Shown piece after piece: positions 31,796 through 64,000 of a DNA stretch of 64,000 nt. Each line of letters opens with the position of its first letter. Position 1 is the first letter of the stretch. The stretch is from a virus (Duplodnaviria > Caudoviricetes): the IMG/VR virus record IMGVR_UViG_2703719088_000001, positions 21,011 through 85,010 of that record; one strand, written 5' to 3'. The notes beneath the pieces were generated by a model. It was not told the origin of the DNA, searched no databases, and saw nothing but the letters and a program-made list of their open reading frames with translations. A program made the translations under genes and the position numbers.

Positions 31796-32059
31796 ATGAA
31801 GACTTATCCACTACTCGCGTATGAAGAGAACACCTTGTTCGTATGGGGTTCTTTCAATGAAAAGACATTCAAAGGAATGCCTGATGTCACAGAAGACATG
31901 ACTATTGTCGTCCAGAATGCCTCGAATCCGTTTGTCATCATCTATAACACGTCCGGCCTTACAAAGCAGGAAAAAGATGATGTTGTCAAGCAACACTGCA
32001 GCATGATGGCCAACGGATGCAATTTCCGTCCGGAGCGACAACTCCGGCTTTTTTATTAG
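31796..32059 (+). CDS. hypothetical protein
   Basis: 87 aa ORF with TAACCC leader. Confidence 0.65.
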   Translation: MKTYPLLAYEENTLFVWGSFNEKTFKGMPDVTEDMTIVVQNASNPFVIIYNTSGLTKQEKDDVVKQHCSMMANGCNFRPERQLRLFY

Positions 32060-32142: not shown

Positions 32143-32200
32143 CGGCAAGATTTTTTCTGCCGAAAGATTTGGAGTAAATATAGCAAATACATTATATTTA
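32143..32200 (+). promoter_or_regulatory. promoter with upstream inverted repeat
   Basis: TTTG (32168)-N21-TATATTTA (32193); CGGCA...TGCCG inverted repeat 32143-32162; further CGGCA copies near 32234 and 32250. Confidence 0.55.
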
Positions 32201-32261
32201 CATTGTAAACAAAAACAACAACCAAGACACCGGCGGCAACGGGTAACAGCGGCAGAAGATT

Positions 32262-32795
32262 ATGACAACAAAGGACACCACCATCAAGTACACCTCCAAG
32301 TCAGGTAAAGATGTTATTGTGACAGTACATCGCAAGTATGGTGCATACATTGAGCATCATCACGACTCAGAAAACGGCATCGACTACGACACCAACGAGT
32401 TTGCCAATGACCAGAGCATAACGGTTGAGGTTCCCGGCGTTTGCAGATTTGAGACCAAGTACCTGCCGGATATGAAGCACCCCAAAATCAACATGTACTA
32501 TCTGAACAATGGCAGTGTATGTGTAGCCGTGCCTGACGAGATAGCCGAGCAGATCTTTGAGGCTGAGCGCGAGAGATTGACCGAGGAACTGTCACCTTCC
32601 GTCGTTGCAAGCATCCAGGAAGCAAAGACCGCCATCCGCAATGGTCGTGTAATGCCAAAGGCTGAGCTGAGTAATAAGCGCAAGGAATACAACGACATTT
32701 GCAATGAAGGCGCAGAGGGCTACAACCCCTTCGATGGCTACCTGACAACTGAGTATGTTGAGCGTTTGAAAGCGGAATATCCCGAAAAATTTTAA
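32262..32795 (+). CDS. hypothetical protein
   Basis: 177 aa, first gene after the promoter. Confidence 0.75.
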   Translation: MTTKDTTIKYTSKSGKDVIVTVHRKYGAYIEHHHDSENGIDYDTNEFANDQSITVEVPGVCRFETKYLPDMKHPKINMYYLNNGSVCVAVPDEIAEQIFEAERERLTEELSPSVVASIQEAKTAIRNGRVMPKAELSNKRKEYNDICNEGAEGYNPFDGYLTTEYVERLKAEYPEKF

Positions 32796-32807
32796 AAACT
32801 ATAAACT

Positions 32808-33293
32808 ATGCCACTTGACAGAAATTGCAACGCGATACCATATATCGCAGGGCGGATGATCGCCATCACCGAGCACTATGCCCAAAAAAAATTCGGCCCG
32901 AACACCCTCTCGACAATGTTCCAGCACCCGGCCGGCACAATAGGTGTGTTCCGCCGCTACATAGATAAGGATGACGAGTATTACCGGGAGGTGGGAGAGG
33001 TCGAATTGCCTATCACGACAGCAAACGAGGTGGCCAAAAGCCAGATGTGGGTAGGCTACTATCATCAGACGGCCGCTTATGACGAGAGCAGTGACGCTCG
33101 TTTGCGTATCGGCAAGCGGATAGCCGACCTACGCAAGTCGGCCGGAATGACACAGGAGCAGCTTGCGACCAAGGCGGGCATCCATCAGGTCAACCTATCA
33201 CGCATAGAGGCCGGGAGGTACGCTGTAGGGCTGGATATCCTTGACCACATCGCCCAGGCTTTGGGCGGAAGAGTTGATATCATCACCGATTAG
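32808..33293 (+). CDS. Cas11c-like (Cas8c/Csd1 C-terminal) domain fused to XRE HTH
   Basis: MPLD.....PYIAGRMIAITE ... HP ... MWVGYYHQ matches the Cas11c pattern MxLD.....PY..GR..A..E ... P ... F.IGYYHQ; C-terminal RIADLRKSAGMTQEQLATKAGI...LSRIEAG is an HTH_3 signature. Confidence 0.75.
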   Translation: MPLDRNCNAIPYIAGRMIAITEHYAQKKFGPNTLSTMFQHPAGTIGVFRRYIDKDDEYYREVGEVELPITTANEVAKSQMWVGYYHQTAAYDESSDARLRIGKRIADLRKSAGMTQEQLATKAGIHQVNLSRIEAGRYAVGLDILDHIAQALGGRVDIITD

Positions 33294-33410
33294 GTGTTGC
33301 TTTTATCAAGTAAAGTACGAAGTTGTCAAAAATGTAGGCAACGTGTACTTTCTCAATTGACCGACTGGGTGGAGATTGGCCTCTCCATCCACTCCTTATC
33401 TCTAAATAAT

Positions 33411-34784
33411 ATGCCTATGGAAGATAACAAGAAAAGAATCAAAGAGATACTTTCTTCCTTCAATGTAAGGATAGAGAGTATCGAAGAGAAGGTGGGGCAT
33501 TCGATTACATTGTACGAAGTCAAACCTTCACTGGGTGTGCGCATCTCCAAGATACGCAACCTGAAAGACGAGATAGCCATCGGTTTATCCGTCCCTGCTG
33601 TAAGAATTGTTGCTCCTCTGCCCAGCGGTCTCGTTGGTATTGAAGTGCCAAACAAGACCAGGCAGGTGATACCTATTTCGGATATCATCGAGTCTGAGGA
33701 ATACATCGACTCGAAGGCAGAGTTGCCATGTGCTATCGGCAGGACAATCGCCAACGAGGTCTTTGTGCCGGATTTGGCCGACATGCCGCATATGCTAATC
33801 GCCGGTGCCACAGGCCAAGGTAAATCAGTGTGCCTGAACACTATCCTTCTGTCTTTACTCGAAAGCAATTCACCAGAAGAGATGAAACTTGTCTTGGTCG
33901 ATCCAAAGCAGGTTGAGATGTCTGCCTACGCATCGCTTCGTGACACGTATCTCGCTGCACCCGTTCTCACCGAAGCAGACAAGGCATATGCTATCCTATG
34001 TGATGTGGTGACGGAGATGGAGAGAAGGTATTCTATTTTGAACGAAAACGGGGTAAGGAATCTTGGTGAGTACAACATCCGCTATCCTGACAGCCAGATG
34101 CCGTACATTGTTGTTGTCATAGATGAGTATGGAGACCTTGTCATGTCTGCCGGAAGAGAGTTCGAGAAGATTATCTGCCGCATAGCACAGAAAGCGAGAG
34201 CTGTCGGCATACATATGATTATCTCAACGCAGCGTCCGTCTGCGACAATCGTTACAGGTGACATCAAGGCCAACTTCCCGACACGTATGGCTTTCCGTAC
34301 TGTCACAGGTGTTGACTCAAGGGTTATCCTTGACCAGACTGGCGCAGAAAAGCTGACAGGTAAGGGCGACTTCATCTACTACAGCGGTGCTGAACTGCTT
34401 AGAGGCCAGTGTGCCTTGACAACGATAGATGACATCAAAGACCTTGTTGCCCATATACATGAGCAGTATGCCGATTATGTGAATACCCCTACATTGCAAT
34501 GGGAGATAAGGGAAGAGTATCGAAGAACGCATCCGTCGTTGTTGCTGCAGATTGCTCAATACATTGCTGACTTTGATTATATCACGATGGATATGATCGA
34601 AAAGAAGTTTGGGTTACGTAGTTCGTTTTCCTTGGAAAATACCTTGGAATTATCACGTGTCATCGCGTGTAAACGATATGACTACGATAATTGGAAGACC
34701 GAAGATGGACATGTTGTCCTTGTTCACGACAAGAGCCTACTCCCTGAAATGGTAGCCCCATATGAGAATTTTTTGGTTGGGTGA
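33411..34784 (+). CDS. FtsK/SpoIIIE-family DNA translocase without N-terminal membrane anchor
   Basis: MPHMLIAGATGQGKS, VDPKQVE, YIVVVIDEYGDL, AQKARAVGIH, TQRPS, RVILDQ.GAEKL.GKGD; likely start 33411 or 33417. Confidence 0.9.
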   Translation: MPMEDNKKRIKEILSSFNVRIESIEEKVGHSITLYEVKPSLGVRISKIRNLKDEIAIGLSVPAVRIVAPLPSGLVGIEVPNKTRQVIPISDIIESEEYIDSKAELPCAIGRTIANEVFVPDLADMPHMLIAGATGQGKSVCLNTILLSLLESNSPEEMKLVLVDPKQVEMSAYASLRDTYLAAPVLTEADKAYAILCDVVTEMERRYSILNENGVRNLGEYNIRYPDSQMPYIVVVIDEYGDLVMSAGREFEKIICRIAQKARAVGIHMIISTQRPSATIVTGDIKANFPTRMAFRTVTGVDSRVILDQTGAEKLTGKGDFIYYSGAELLRGQCALTTIDDIKDLVAHIHEQYADYVNTPTLQWEIREEYRRTHPSLLLQIAQYIADFDYITMDMIEKKFGLRSSFSLENTLELSRVIACKRYDYDNWKTEDGHVVLVHDKSLLPEMVAPYENFLVG

Positions 34785-34842
34785 TACCATGCCGGGCAGA
34801 ATCAGCCTTCTGCCCGGCAACCACTTATCTAATTTTAAAGCT

Positions 34843-35691
34843 ATGATTGGTTCTTTTGAAAAAGAGTTTGCCATGAAAAATCCTGGCAGAACTCAGATTT
34901 TGCGCTTCATGCGTGAAGCACTGGACGTTGATGAGGTGAAGTGGGAGAGTCTTACCCATCTGAACCTCGTGTCTGTCGCCGAGCATATACGTTCATGTGT
35001 TTCTCCGAACAGCGCGGTGACGTACCTGGCTATTGTGAAGGCTTTCCTTGCACAATACAAGGACGAAGGTGTCGTGCCATGCTCAAATCCAGCGAAGGCA
35101 CTAAAGGCAAAGAAAGTGCCGCAGCAGAATGTGGCACTCACCCTTGACGAACTCAACAAGATTGAGAGGTACTACGACAGGCTTCTTGCAAAAGGAGGCC
35201 ATCAAGCCGAGAAGGATGCTTTGACGCTCTTCCTGCTTGAATGCTTCTGTGGTGCACGTGGATGTGATGTTGAGAACATGACATTGGAAAACATAAAGGA
35301 TGGCAAGCTGACATATGTCTCTCAGAAAACACAGATATTGGCCACCATCCCCGTTCACAGACGGCTGGAAGACCTGCTATCCAGAAAACCGAAGAAGCAG
35401 TACACAGCATGTACGAAGAATAGGATTATCAAGCGTGTCGCTGAGAGATGTGGCATCTCCGATCCTGTGACCATATTCTATCACGGTAGCATGCAGACAA
35501 AGCCAAAATACGAGTATCTTGGCACGCATACAGCCAGACGGACGTTCTCTTCCATCCTCGCCGCCAATGGCACACCAATCCCTGAGATATCGCAGTTCAT
35601 GGGGCATTCGGAAATCTCAATGACAGAGAGATATATTAAAGTGGACATGAACACCGTCTCACAGGCTGCGATGGCATTCTTCAATGCTTGA
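34843..35691 (+). CDS. tyrosine recombinase (Xer/integrase family, no arm-binding domain)
   Basis: CGAR (R), HTARR (HxxR), MGHS..MTERY (H and Y); SAM-like N-terminus; start estimated inside ORF 34762..35691. Confidence 0.85.
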   Translation: MIGSFEKEFAMKNPGRTQILRFMREALDVDEVKWESLTHLNLVSVAEHIRSCVSPNSAVTYLAIVKAFLAQYKDEGVVPCSNPAKALKAKKVPQQNVALTLDELNKIERYYDRLLAKGGHQAEKDALTLFLLECFCGARGCDVENMTLENIKDGKLTYVSQKTQILATIPVHRRLEDLLSRKPKKQYTACTKNRIIKRVAERCGISDPVTIFYHGSMQTKPKYEYLGTHTARRTFSSILAANGTPIPEISQFMGHSEISMTERYIKVDMNTVSQAAMAFFNA

Positions 35692-38396: not shown

Positions 38397-39431
38397 TTAT
38401 TTTTTTGCTATAACCACATTCAAAACTTCTTTTAAAAATTTTGCTATCTTGACGAGTTCCGGAATATCCTTATACTCATCTTCTCTACCACAACACAAAT
38501 CTTGTGTCATATTAAAGGTGTTGTACTGATAGTGTCCTGGATCTTCGTAGAATTTGCACAGCTCGACCAGTTCCTTGAACCATCGATCCTTGATTCCGCT
38601 CGGTATATCCTTATAGACACCCTCCTTCGCTTTAATTGCATCGTCGCAACCAGAATTGCTTATCAACGTCCATATCAGATGTGCGGCTACCTTCTCGCTC
38701 AATTTATCAATACGCTTTGCCAGCAAAGCATCGTACTCCTCTTTGGTGATGTCGTGCCATTTGCCATCGTCGCCCTCAGTGCTATACATATTCAAGTCAA
38801 CTCGATCTCCTTCTGGAGTAATGACGTAAAATATACCTCTCGTGTCGAAGTCTCCGTGCTTCTTGTCCGTGAGGAAAGTCTGTGCAAAAATCTTATACTT
38901 GCCTTTTTGGGGCATGTACGGCATTGTGATTGGGAACATTTCGTCGATGAAGCCTGTCCACGAACCATAGGTGTCAGACGGATTTTCCACATTGATGTAA
39001 TACGCTCTATCTACATCGTGATAACTAACCTTGCCATCAAGCGTTTCCTCGCGGAACAGGCTCGACATTCTCGGACATTGTAGGCTCGATTTCAAACCAC
39101 GTTCTATCAGGCTCTCTTCTGGCTCTAACGAATGTACCTCAGTACCATTGGCTCTAACAAAGAAATCTTCATCATTAATAGGGGTAAGAGGTTGCCCTTC
39201 CATCAACCTAATCAGAATGTTCTTCGTCATACTGAAGCTAAAACCACTATGGCCATCCTCGCACAACGACTTGTAGGCTTTCAATGCTGACTTGTAGCAG
39301 CTACACCCATAATCAAAATCCTCGCTATCAAAGTCGATGTTCGGATTCTCTCTCTTGCAGGCTATTCGGCATTCCTGCTCTGCCCAATTTGACATGCTCA
39401 TATCTTTTCCTCTTTTTTGTATATAATTCAT
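38397..39431 (-). CDS. hypothetical protein
   Basis: 344 aa; DGHSGFSFS...PLTPI motif. Confidence 0.75.
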   Translation of the reverse strand: MNYIQKRGKDMSMSNWAEQECRIACKRENPNIDFDSEDFDYGCSCYKSALKAYKSLCEDGHSGFSFSMTKNILIRLMEGQPLTPINDEDFFVRANGTEVHSLEPEESLIERGLKSSLQCPRMSSLFREETLDGKVSYHDVDRAYYINVENPSDTYGSWTGFIDEMFPITMPYMPQKGKYKIFAQTFLTDKKHGDFDTRGIFYVITPEGDRVDLNMYSTEGDDGKWHDITKEEYDALLAKRIDKLSEKVAAHLIWTLISNSGCDDAIKAKEGVYKDIPSGIKDRWFKELVELCKFYEDPGHYQYNTFNMTQDLCCGREDEYKDIPELVKIAKFLKEVLNVVIAKK

Positions 39432-43133: not shown

Positions 43134-43837
43134 TTAACTATACATTTCTCTCAATTTTCTGATAACGCCACTTCCGTAGGCATCCTTTACGATATCCAGA
43201 AAATACCCAACGGTGTATTCCTTGTCCATATTCAGCCCGTGGTCTCGGACGAACTGGTCACGGCCCATCGTGCAAGAACCGGTCAAGATGTGGTGCCAGT
43301 GGTAGAACACCTCGCATTTTTCCTTACTATCCAAGGACGGGAACTCCGCCTTGAACCTGTCCAGCCGCTCTTCCAACGGCATCTGCTCCATCGCCTTGGC
43401 TTGAGCATCCTCAGCGGCTTTTCTTAGTGTCTCGCCGTGAGCTAATGAATTGCCGCTGCGAGCAATGTAGCACGATGTAAGTGTCAGGTCGCCGTTGACA
43501 AGTCGCCCCTTTGCATAATAGTCTCCATGCACAGAATCTATGAGTGTCGGCAAGTTGTCAATATACCAAACCTTATTGCCGTTATATTCTTTCAAGCCGC
43601 CGTTGCCGTCGCCGTCGCCGTTGCCGGAGCCGTAGCCGGACCCGTAGCCGGAGCCGTAGCCGTAGCCGTCGCCGCGTCGCCGTCGCCGGAGCCGTCGCCG
43701 GAGCCGTAGCCGTCGCCGTCGCCGTCGCCGTTGCCGGAGCCGTTGCCGAAGCCGTAGCCGGAGCCGTAGCCGTAGCCGTCGCCGTAGCCGGTATTACGAG
43801 GCCGCAAGAAAGCCTCGATTACCTTGATATCTTCCAT
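43134..43837 (-). pseudogene. Gly-X repeat protein frameshifted within its microsatellite
   Basis: MEDIK...(GYGDGS)n reading frame lost at 43671-43680; restoring 1 nt joins it to LKEYNGNKVW... (ORF 43134..43595). Confidence 0.7.
43597..43790. repeat. GGC-NNN hexamer microsatellite (about 30 units)
   Basis: gccgtc/gccgta/gccgga/gccgtt tandem units. Confidence 0.95.
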
Positions 43838-62102: not shown

Positions 62103-62753
62103 ATGAACAGACAGAGTGACATGATCAACAGAATCACTGATTTAGTGGAAGATAGCGGACTAACGAACTGCGCTTTCGCCAGAAAGGTTGGTATTGATGC
62201 TTCTGCCTTCTCGAAGAAGATAAAAGGCATCAGCACAATAACCAAAAAGGACATCTCCCTTATTAGCACCGCCCTTGGAGTCCAGTATGAGTGGTTGCTG
62301 ACCGGAGAAGGGGAAAAGACAGGAAGCATCATCTATAATACGGATGCGCCTGATTCCCCCGAATCAGACACATCTGTCTCAAGATTCAAGATGTATCTCA
62401 ACTCAAAAGGAATTACCAATGCCCGTGCGGAGAAAGAGTGCGGTTTCTCCAACGGGCTAATAGGGAATGCTCTTAGGACAAACTCTACGATCGGAAGCGA
62501 TAAGTTAGAAAAAATCTTAAATGTTTACCCGGATATGTCAGCTGAATGGCTGCTCCGTGGAAGAGGAAAGATGATATTGGGACAAGACAAGTCACGGGAA
62601 ATATATGCACGTATCGCGCAGATTGCCAGCGGAGAACGCAACCAAGACAAAGCCTATGATGTAATACTTGCTATCATCGATATGGTCGGAAAGATCTACG
62701 AGTTCTTCTACAACAAGAACAAGAACAGCGAACAGATTGTTGTTGAGAAGTAA
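62103..62753 (+). CDS. CI-like repressor with two HTH domains
   Basis: FARKVGIDAS...YEWLLTGEG and RAEKECGFSNG...SAEWLLRGRG; divergent from the lytic operon. Confidence 0.75.
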   Translation: MNRQSDMINRITDLVEDSGLTNCAFARKVGIDASAFSKKIKGISTITKKDISLISTALGVQYEWLLTGEGEKTGSIIYNTDAPDSPESDTSVSRFKMYLNSKGITNARAEKECGFSNGLIGNALRTNSTIGSDKLEKILNVYPDMSAEWLLRGRGKMILGQDKSREIYARIAQIASGERNQDKAYDVILAIIDMVGKIYEFFYNKNKNSEQIVVEK

Positions 62754-62815
62754 CATGGTTTTTTTACCTTTGCCACGAAAAACCAAAGACAATAGCGAAG
62801 GAATACGGCTTGTAA

Positions 62816-64000
62816 TCAGACGAACTCTTCCAACCTTGTAAACTGATTACATACATCTTGAGAGAGTATCTTGGCGTATCTCATTGTCATGGCTATGTCT
62901 GTGTGCCCAGCCATTCGGCTGGCTATCTCAATAGGAACACCATGTCTTAGCACCCAAGTGACATATGTATGACGAAGCACATGTGAGTGTAGGTCAAAGC
63001 GAAGATTGGCCATCGTGCCTATGACCTTCAAAAGCCTGTTATATTCTTGGTTGGAAATGTGCGGTATCTGCATGTCGTATCTCTCTATCACCTCTACTAC
63101 AGGCGGTAGCAGTTGGTTGACGAACAGAACGGATGTCTTCGTCCGTACACCGGCCTTCACCCACTTCCCGTTTTCAAGACGATAGTCACGCATATCGAAT
63201 TTCATCAGATCAGCATAGGCCATGCCTGTGTACATCTGTATGACGGCGAGATCCCTGGCCGTAGCAATACGGGCGGATGGAATCTTCATCTCCCTGATGA
63301 GTGTCATCTCATCTTCCGTCAGAAAGTCTATGGTTGCCCTGTCGCCCCTCTTGAACCGGCCTCTGAGTTTGTTGTAGGGGTTTATCGTGATTTTATCTAA
63401 CAGGACAGCCCTGTTGAGCAGAGCCTTGAAGCATTTGTGGTAGTTGTATAGCCCTGCATCTGATATTGGTATCTTTTTTGCGTTGCTCTTGCTCTCCGCA
63501 TCGCTCTGGCGGATGGTGATATTCTTCCGCATCCAGTTATCAAAAGCAAGGACACTCTCCACCGTGACATCATCCCAACGTTTTATCTTACCATATTCCT
63601 GCAGCCGGTAGACAAGACAGCGGTAGTGCTTTATCGTCCCGTCCTTGAGGTTCATCTGTTCAATCTGCTCTTTCATCCATTCGATGATGGTCTTCTCATA
63701 CTCCTCCCTGTAAAACCATATAGCCTTACGTACCATTTCAATGTCGAACGCAAGACCTTTCTCTATCATTCTGTTGATCACCTCGCCTATTTTGACGCAG
63801 AATAACGCCAATCTGCGATTTAACACTTCGCTGTCTGGTCTGTTGATGATACACCCGCTTGCAAACTCATTGCGAAGCACCTTGATTCCCGTTGAAATGT
63901 AGAAGGTCTTCCTATCAGTTATCACCCTGATTTCCACAGACCCTGGCATCCCTTTTTTCGCTCTGTTTCGATAATCGAAAACGATGTTTGTTGTTACCAT
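62816..64000 (-). CDS. int: phage integrase (tyrosine recombinase with Arm and SAM domains)
   Basis: Arm-binding YISTGIKV, YTGMAYAD, HVLRHTY, MAGHTDIAMTMRYAK. Confidence 0.92.
   Translation of the reverse strand: MVTTNIVFDYRNRAKKGMPGSVEIRVITDRKTFYISTGIKVLRNEFASGCIINRPDSEVLNRRLALFCVKIGEVINRMIEKGLAFDIEMVRKAIWFYREEYEKTIIEWMKEQIEQMNLKDGTIKHYRCLVYRLQEYGKIKRWDDVTVESVLAFDNWMRKNITIRQSDAESKSNAKKIPISDAGLYNYHKCFKALLNRAVLLDKITINPYNKLRGRFKRGDRATIDFLTEDEMTLIREMKIPSARIATARDLAVIQMYTGMAYADLMKFDMRDYRLENGKWVKAGVRTKTSVLFVNQLLPPVVEVIERYDMQIPHISNQEYNRLLKVIGTMANLRFDLHSHVLRHTYVTWVLRHGVPIEIASRMAGHTDIAMTMRYAKILSQDVCNQFTRLEEFV

Follow-up and report, generated by a model that had tools for sequence, protein, structure and literature searches.

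The gene analysed here lies at positions 32808..33293, on the plus strand, of a 64,000-nucleotide stretch of phage DNA (the window), which belongs to an IMG/VR provirus record of 85 kb (IMGVR_UViG_2703719088_000001). Read as a whole open reading frame (ORF) with its stop codon, it encodes a protein of 161 amino acids (P0001) that begins MPLDRNCNAIPYIAGRMIAITEHY and carries WVGYYHQ at residues 81-87. The first of its two domains, residues 1-92 (32808..33083), is a five-helix bundle homologous, in both profile and structure comparisons, to type I-C Cas11c, that is, to the C-terminal domain of Cas8c. A linker (residues 93-104, 33084..33119), which fills the interval between the Cas11c-like model and the next match, leads to a XRE-family helix-turn-helix (HTH) DNA-binding domain of the Pfam HTH_3 type at residues 105-157 (33120..33278), all on the same strand. 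HTH_3 (PF01381) matched this region with E 9e-13 (48.5 bits, cut-off 23) and HTH_31 with E 4e-11, and its closest PDB sequences are XRE, C-protein and antitoxin HTH domains. The gene caller had placed the start at M17, yielding a product of 145 amino acids (P0002). However, residues 1-16 (M-x-LD-x7-Y-xx-GR) are kept in all full-length relatives in our alignment and, because of this conservation, we consider M1 to be the real start; it is the same Met as the one at which Cas11c begins. An initial interpretation made from the letters of the DNA, which we call the sequence-only reading, had proposed both a start at the Cas11c-equivalent Met and a fusion to HTH_3, and the conservation of residues 1-16 and the PF01381 match, respectively, bear out these two proposals.

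The relationship with Cas11c emerged from profile comparisons. On its own, the window protein scored 11.1 bits against the Pfam Cas_Csd1 model (PF09709), below the cut-off of 27, and a word-indexed search for longer proteins with its N-terminal domain retrieved no Cas8c, so that profile methods were required. Single-sequence searches gave two weak matches, in colinear order along the Cas8c/Csd1 C-terminus: residues 1-26 match PF09709 positions 444-469 (of 559), residues 62-91 match TIGR01863 positions 546-580 (of 588). We then used an alignment restricted to the N-terminal domain (A4; 10 sequences, from thirteen close relatives and further loci). The ten best matches of its profile in the PDB were type I-C Cas11c/Cas8c chains only, with 7kha_K as the best one (E 1.9e-4) and 9jhb_B, 9jhc_A and 8g9s_H, together with their full-length Cas8c chains, among the others; both end motifs were aligned, and the first unrelated chain appeared at E 0.79. 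When A4 was compared by hhalign with an alignment of Porphyromonas-type Cas8c, residues 1-90 of the N-terminal domain fell on columns 482-599 of 618 with a probability of 96.1% and E 3.3e-9. The identity of the viral domain to real Cas11c is ~20-25%.

An exhaustive HMMER search of 1.84e9 representative sequences found 42 proteins at E <=1e-3, all of them 50-254 amino acids long. One of the 42 (P0051, E 2.4e-4) is a genuine Cas11c sequence within a cas5-cas8c-cas7-cas4 locus, 100% identical to the C-terminus of a 614-amino acid Cas8c whose named neighbours are Porphyromonas Cas8c. In one contig (L022, 1476-3255) cas8c has been called as two pieces of 452 and 134 amino acids, the latter identical to the C-terminus of the intact 614-amino acid Cas8c (P0057); this split is probably due to a frameshift or an assembly error rather than reflecting a natural separate cas11c gene. 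Between the viral family and Cas8c stand several bridging small relatives, of which P0035, P0038 and P0041 reach 43.8, 40.5 and 32.8 bits, respectively, on Pfam Cas_Csd1 (cut-off 27), P0038 being above the cut-off for HTH_3 as well. The alignment of these distant small relatives (A6) matched A4 with an hhalign E-value of 2e-27.

Structural comparisons gave the same picture. The AlphaFold2 model of the N-terminal domain, obtained without templates, had a predicted local distance difference test score (pLDDT) of 93.4. Its top 13 Foldseek matches in the PDB were all type I-C Cas8c C-terminal domains or Cas11c (probability 0.99-1.00), after which the probability fell below 0.2. VIA-align superposed the model on Cas11c and Cas8c C-terminal domains with Z-scores of 9.3-11.6 and root-mean-square deviations (rmsd) of 2.4-2.6 Å over 90-94 residues; the best match was 9jhc_A (Z 11.6, rmsd 2.4 Å, 90 of 94 residues), and the best unrelated chain had a Z-score of 4.9. 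No Cas11 of other types (I-B, I-E, III) was found among the structural matches. Structural neighbours in the ESM Atlas formed three mostly viral clusters and one Cas_Csd1 cluster. Matches in BFVD were weak (E 0.3 or worse), which suggests distant gut-virome relatives annotated as HTH proteins. We conclude that the homology of residues 1-92 to type I-C Cas11c is genuine. The sequence-only reading had recognized the two end motifs of Cas11c in this protein, and their presence goes beyond chance given the colinear Pfam and TIGR matches and the agreement of profile and structure; the profile and fold comparisons with the Cas8c C-terminus and Cas11c that it had proposed gave significant matches in both cases.

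The relatives of this protein share a mobile way of life and differ at their C-termini. All the family loci that we examined are in mobile elements, namely phages, a conjugative transposon (with TraM, DUF4138 and TraG) and islands with ParB-DUF4417, HNH and methylase genes. The gene is the last one (second-to-last in one locus) in a run of small genes without known family, and the upstream genes found at the same position in six loci could not be aligned with one another, except those of L009 and L011. A variable upstream gene is the hallmark of anti-CRISPR (acr) and anti-CRISPR-associated (aca) loci, and the survey of neighbourhoods suggested by the sequence-only reading revealed an acr-aca-like unit restricted to mobile elements. 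Searches outside these contigs were negative: no match was obtained when species-representative genomes were scanned with the family profile and then with the portal protein, nor when the N-terminal domain was compared by tblastn with GenBank phages and PLSDB plasmids.

Within the family, the Cas11c-like domain is the constant and most conserved part (72% mean column identity), and its C-terminal partner can be HTH_3, a domain resembling ribbon-helix-helix (RHH) proteins, a short tail, or nothing. In most relatives the C-terminus consists of a GG-x-R-x3-GRP arm followed by an RHH-resembling strand-helix-helix; the model of one of them (P0005) shows an extended segment and then helices at 120-129 and 133-142, with pLDDT 66-79, and the Pfam matches of this type of C-terminus to RHH_7 (E 0.089) and RHH_1 (E 0.22) are both below the cut-off. 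The short-tail form ends with N-x-I-x-x-L-K-K. Forms devoid of any DNA-binding domain are present in IMG/VR viral contigs (e.g., L028 5001-5306), suggesting that the Cas11c-like domain has a role of its own.

Two other observations concern these C-terminal modules. A tail of the form H-x-P-E-x-(I/V)-x-P ... N-x-I-(I/N)-x-L-(K/R)-K is shared by otherwise unrelated small early proteins of related phages (L028 4009-4326, 4661-5011 and 5303-5614; L027 4673-4996 and 5001-5438; L026 3400-3786). One of the proteins with the shared tail is Cas11c-like, the representatives P0035, P0036, P0037, P0041, P0048 and P0053 are tailed too, and all the genes concerned adjoin a gene for a helicase-like protein of ~400 amino acids; the tail looks like a docking peptide. 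We left L012-L014 out of the family, as they match through the HTH only and have a different N-terminal domain. In such related phages (L012 4713-5342, L014 4665-5297; L026 5863-6267), a protein of ~210 amino acids with a similar HTH and an unrelated N-terminal domain is encoded just before the integrase, and the same contigs contain, ~3.6 kb upstream, a Cas11c-like ORF without DNA-binding domain.

In the window, the Cas11c-HTH gene is the second of a two-gene unit. The upstream boundary of the unit is a terminator-like hairpin with a T-run at 32030..32056 (plus strand; stem 32030-32047 with 6 pairs, 5 of them GC, then CTTTTTTATT), which ends the preceding gene (31796-32059). The first gene of the unit (32262..32795, plus strand) encodes 177 amino acids without Pfam, NCBIfam or PHROG family; it occupies the variable cargo position and is a candidate second anti-defence gene. 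The Cas11c-HTH gene begins 12 nucleotides after it. In the 200-bp gap 5' of the first gene, we read from the sequence a predicted promoter of the Bacteroidetes type, overlapped by an inverted repeat that is a candidate operator (32168..32201, plus strand). The Bacteroides promoter consensus is TTTG at -33 and TAnnTTTG at -7; the window has TTTG at 32168-32171 and TATATTTA at 32193-32200, separated by 21 nucleotides, and the latter aligns with a perfect TATCTTTG in L009, the closest HTH-type relative. The arms of the inverted repeat, GTAAATATA (32174-32182) and TATATTTAC (32193-32201), are 9 nucleotides long, 100% complementary and separated by a spacer of 10 nucleotides, and the right arm is the predicted -7 box itself, although 9-bp repeats are not rare in AT-rich DNA and the candidate operator at 32174-32201 has to be read with this caveat. 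The sequence-only reading had already placed a promoter with an inverted repeat ahead of the unit, and the 9-bp repeat indeed falls within the range that it had indicated (32143-32260).

Repeats occur at the promoters of relatives as well. L009 has a 21-nucleotide inverted repeat upstream. We examined five RHH-type loci, and in three of them (L001, L016, L020) a repeat of the TTGATAxATG... type is found 5' of the operon. Related loci have promoter repeats of their own, which are common to those whose DNA-binding domain is of one type. We infer that in the window the HTH binds the inverted repeat at the promoter. A GC-rich leader (ACCGGCGGCAACGGGTAACAGCGGCA, 32229..32254, plus strand), with one mismatch in 26 bases against L009 (alignment A9), lies just 5' of the start codon; this 26-nucleotide element (ACCGGCGGCAACGGGKAACAGCGGCA) is found at 32229-32254 in the window and at 4513-4538 in L009 despite the unrelated first genes of the two loci, and may serve to control the cassette at the level of translation or of RNA. 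Hairpins are also found 3' of the stop codon of the Cas11c-HTH gene, at 33312-33351 and 33363-33394.

The element that carries this unit is a temperate Bacteroidales-type phage. Within the window, the provirus encodes a terminase, a portal, a D5-like primase, ERF, Gp157, methylases, a Tad3-like protein, a CI-like HTH protein and a terminal integrase. Its portal protein shares 44% identity with the portals of Bacteroides LoVEphage, Bacteroides BI-TP1 and Phocaeicola PV4-TP1, with Parabacteroides phage portals as more distant relatives. Neither other cas genes (Cas7, Cas5, Cas1 or a further Cas_Csd1) nor a CRISPR array was found in the window, where the sequence-only reading had reported the absence of a cas operon and array, or in the whole 85-kb record, and the Rfam scan around the locus was negative for CRISPR-DR as for all other RNA families.

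Several other features of the phage are worth describing. Directly 3' of the Cas11c-HTH gene (33294-35691, plus strand) lie genes for an FtsK/SpoIIIE-type ATPase, the true start of which is likely near 33411, and for a second tyrosine recombinase (34762-35691). The Tad3-like gene (38397-39431, minus strand) encodes 344 amino acids, the N-terminus of which matches Pfam Tad3 (type I Thoeris inhibitor) with E 1e-22. A GC-rich repeat with a periodicity of 12 nucleotides (GCCGTxGCCGxx units) at 43575-43808 falls inside a coding sequence, where its product is probably a repeat protein of low complexity. We also considered, and rejected, the Cas11c-HTH protein as master lysogeny repressor, since the CI-like HTH protein (62103-62753) adjoins the integrase ~30 kb away. 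This CI-like protein has HTH_3 at residues 18-65 of 216, the integrase occupies 62816-64000, and an ERF/Gp157 early operon lies opposite on the minus strand, so that the region 62103-64000 probably constitutes the lysogeny switch of this prophage.

Our preferred interpretation, to which we assign a probability of roughly 55%, is that the Cas11c-HTH protein is a decoy of Cas11c, an anti-CRISPR directed against the type I-C Cascade of Bacteroidales and provided with a built-in Aca-like autorepressor. A decoy Cascade subunit that poisons type I-C complexes was also the first option of the sequence-only reading. The N-terminal 92 residues of the protein descend from Cas11c, which in real systems is the small subunit and is translated from a start codon internal to cas8c. 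The decoy would occupy the position of Cas11c, or that of the Cas8c C-terminal domain, in the belly of Cascade, and a complex containing it would fail to stabilise the R-loop and the non-target strand, so that interference would fail. The XRE HTH would bind the inverted repeat over the promoter of the two-gene unit and turn expression off after an early burst, a shut-off resembling that exerted by Aca proteins and by the built-in repressor domains of anti-CRISPRs (Acrs), and the same promoter would also govern the variable upstream cargo gene. A target for such a decoy appears to be available to this phage: type I-C systems are present in Phocaeicola vulgatus/dorei (PMC4860699) and also in Porphyromonas, as seen from the Cas8c neighbours of the 614-amino acid protein matching P0051, and the portals most similar to that of the phage come from Bacteroides, Phocaeicola and Parabacteroides phages. 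We also count in favour of the decoy the Tad3-like anti-Thoeris gene located 5 kb from the Cas11c-HTH gene.

The residues lost and kept relative to working Cas11c can be read in the same way. The viral domain has 92 residues versus ~117 in Cas11c, that is, ~25-28 fewer. It retains the Cas11c core, composed of the N-terminal helix LD-x7-Y-xx-GR-xx-A-xx-E and the C-terminal helix W-x-GYYHQ. In our alignments, two motifs conserved between Porphyromonas-type and Desulfovibrio (D. vulgaris) Cas11c, NATI[KR]DR[YF]..SAS and H..KLRK, are absent from the viral family, where they have been deleted or replaced, the second together with the loop that follows it. In D. vulgaris Cas8c, K607/K608 (K118 of Cas11c), right after GYYHQ, are reported to be the only highly conserved contacts to the non-target strand, and H78 and F117 have been described as stacking aromatics (O'Brien et al., 10.1101/2022.06.15.496202). 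In the ten members of the viral family (10/10), neither of the two positions that follow the conserved Tyr ever holds K or R, the residues there being D/E/G/N/S/H/L, as read from an alignment of the tail beyond GYYHQ made by eye and with a one-residue offset.

The manual alignment of this tail is one of several points that weigh against the decoy. The Cas11c aromatics that stack on the non-target strand are apparently retained (Y58/Y59 and Y91, the latter, following GYYHQ, being kept in 10/10 family members) and, because of this, the viral domain may still bind single-stranded DNA. We looked for a signature of charge reversal and found none, the net charge being -3 versus -2 in genuine Cas11c. 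With an identity of ~20-25%, the domain may no longer have the surface that binds Cascade, and its fold may now serve a different purpose. In addition, the upstream cargo genes belong to no known Acr family, as they match PHROGs of unknown function or nothing, and the provirus record comes without host flanks.

Part of these observations would suit the main alternative, which we regard as unlikely on balance, though it has to be taken seriously, and in which the Cas11 fold is reused in a regulator, as in the second option of the sequence-only reading: an ordinary repressor of a cargo operon, Aca- or Cro-like, in which the Cas11c bundle would only dimerise, stabilise the protein or bind a ligand and any anti-defence activity would belong to the upstream gene. 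A gene in the aca position, last in its unit and behind a promoter with an inverted repeat, is what such a repressor would look like, and so is a conserved Cas11c-HTH gene behind a varying upstream gene; the occurrence of the same HTH behind an unrelated N-terminal domain in L012-L014, the low similarity to real Cas11c and the disappearance of conserved Cas11c motifs also speak for it. However, the part that is swapped among relatives is the DNA-binding module (HTH, RHH-like or tail), the opposite of what a core function in DNA binding would predict, and the part that is most conserved is the Cas11c-like domain, which occurs without any DNA-binding domain as well (L028 5001-5306). Moreover, HTH_3 and RHH domains usually need no partner domain for dimerisation, which we also count against a bundle that would serve for dimerisation only.

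The same architecture that supports the decoy, a mimic of a Cascade subunit covalently joined to a DNA binder and recurring with three different DNA-binding or tail modules, could also be that of a regulator that senses or hijacks Cascade. In that case, docking on Cascade would titrate the repressor off its operator, so that the cargo would be switched on only in type I-C hosts, or would tether Cascade to phage DNA. This seems improbable to us, since it is without precedent, the forms lacking a DNA-binding domain do not fit it, and simple autoregulation already explains the built-in repressor domains of known Acrs. We give an equally small chance to the idea that the tether itself is functional, either because a dimer would fill both adjacent Cas11c slots with avidity or because Cascade binding would pull the repressor off the operator. 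If Cascade binding did free the operator, the phage would sense the host Cascade and switch on its anti-defence cargo, which would amount to a CRISPR-sensing transcriptional switch.

Considerably more doubtful is a small subunit supplied by the phage to the benefit of CRISPR, or a captured cas8c of which a decaying remnant is left. The true homology to Cas11c and the start at the Cas11c Met would agree with either version, but the 85-kb record contains no cas5, cas7, cas1 or CRISPR array and motifs conserved in working Cas11c are missing; the remnant is further contradicted by the conservation of the family under selection across many mobile elements and its fusion to DNA-binding domains. Finally, a convergent or chance likeness can practically be dismissed: small helical bundles easily reach middling structural scores and the single-sequence Pfam matches are below threshold, but the sequence-only profiles reach E 1.9e-4 in the PDB and E 3.3e-9 with hhalign, the PDB matches are exclusively type I-C, bridging sequences exceed the Pfam cut-off, and the start Met is the same.

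Should the decoy be confirmed, its interest would go beyond this phage. Cas-derived "faulty subunit" anti-CRISPRs have so far been demonstrated experimentally only for type I-B (AcrIB3 and AcrIB4), and our literature searches found no Cas11 mimic of type I-C. The Cas11-replacement strategy would thus be extended to type I-C, a compact system used in genome editing, and to gut Bacteroidales, for which no anti-CRISPR turned up in literature searches that did not target that question directly. The residues lost by a working decoy would indicate what Cas11c needs for R-loop locking. The family also represents a natural experiment, with a conserved decoy domain combined with interchangeable HTH, RHH-like, tail or absent C-terminal modules, and its variable upstream genes constitute a ready set of anti-defence candidates.

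Compared with known systems, the viral domain is closest in fold, signature helices and start Met to Cas11c and the Cas8c C-terminal domain themselves (PF09709 ~444-559; PDB 7KHA, 8DEX, 8G9S, 9JHC). Genuine Cas11c is encoded inside cas8c, in a cas3-cas5-cas8c-cas7 operon near a CRISPR array, and two copies of it lie along the Cas7 backbone of Cascade; the window protein is viral, fused to a DNA-binding domain, and encoded neither inside cas8c nor beside cas genes. The covalent union of a putative inhibitor domain with a DNA-binding domain recalls other Acrs. AcrIIA1 has a built-in repressor module, AcrIIC9 is an autoregulating Acr, and both resemble the window protein, as AcrIF25 does, in that an inhibitor domain is joined to an HTH or RHH able to autoregulate the acr promoter. 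In AcrIF25, moreover, the DNA-binding module is interchangeable, the RHH being replaced by an HTH in a homologue (PMC13551039). The inhibitor domains of these three proteins are not Cas homologues, and in the window protein the inhibitor and repressor roles are predicted ones. Aca proteins, including the RHH-type Aca14 (PMC13551039), are small HTH or RHH regulators encoded last in an anti-defence operon, with an inverted repeat over the -10/-7 element and variable genes upstream, a layout that the unit in the window may share; Aca proteins consist of the DNA-binding domain only, to which the window protein adds a 92-amino acid Cas-derived domain that is its more conserved half.

Orphan viral genes similar to cas8c have been noticed before. 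The study by Katz et al. (10.1101/2023.06.24.545427) includes a list (Table S3) of such genes in IMG/VR contigs away from cas operons, some of them with matches of ~300 nucleotides, which is the size of Cas11c. The rows that we consulted were found by BLAST, are uncharacterised and come mostly from phages of Lachnospiraceae and other Firmicutes or from contigs without host assignment; none of six contigs of the viral Cas11c-like family that we looked up in the table is listed there (0/6). From the same source comes the closest precedent, AcrIB4, a homologue of the Cas8b C-terminal domain/Cas11b encoded by mobile elements of Listeria seeligeri. AcrIB4 blocks the binding of Cascade to target DNA and is proposed, in a later study (10.1101/2025.06.06.658234), to replace Cas11. 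According to these descriptions, from which we draw the likeness rather than from direct sequence comparison, AcrIB4 and the window protein are both small mobile-element proteins homologous to the Cas11-equivalent C-terminal ~90 residues of the large Cascade subunit and encoded outside cas loci. They differ in that AcrIB4 derives from type I-B Cas8b, with 38% identity, in Listeria (Firmicutes), whereas the window protein has its origin in type I-C Cas11c, with ~20-25% identity, in Bacteroidales-type elements, and carries an HTH that is replaced by an RHH-like module in its relatives.

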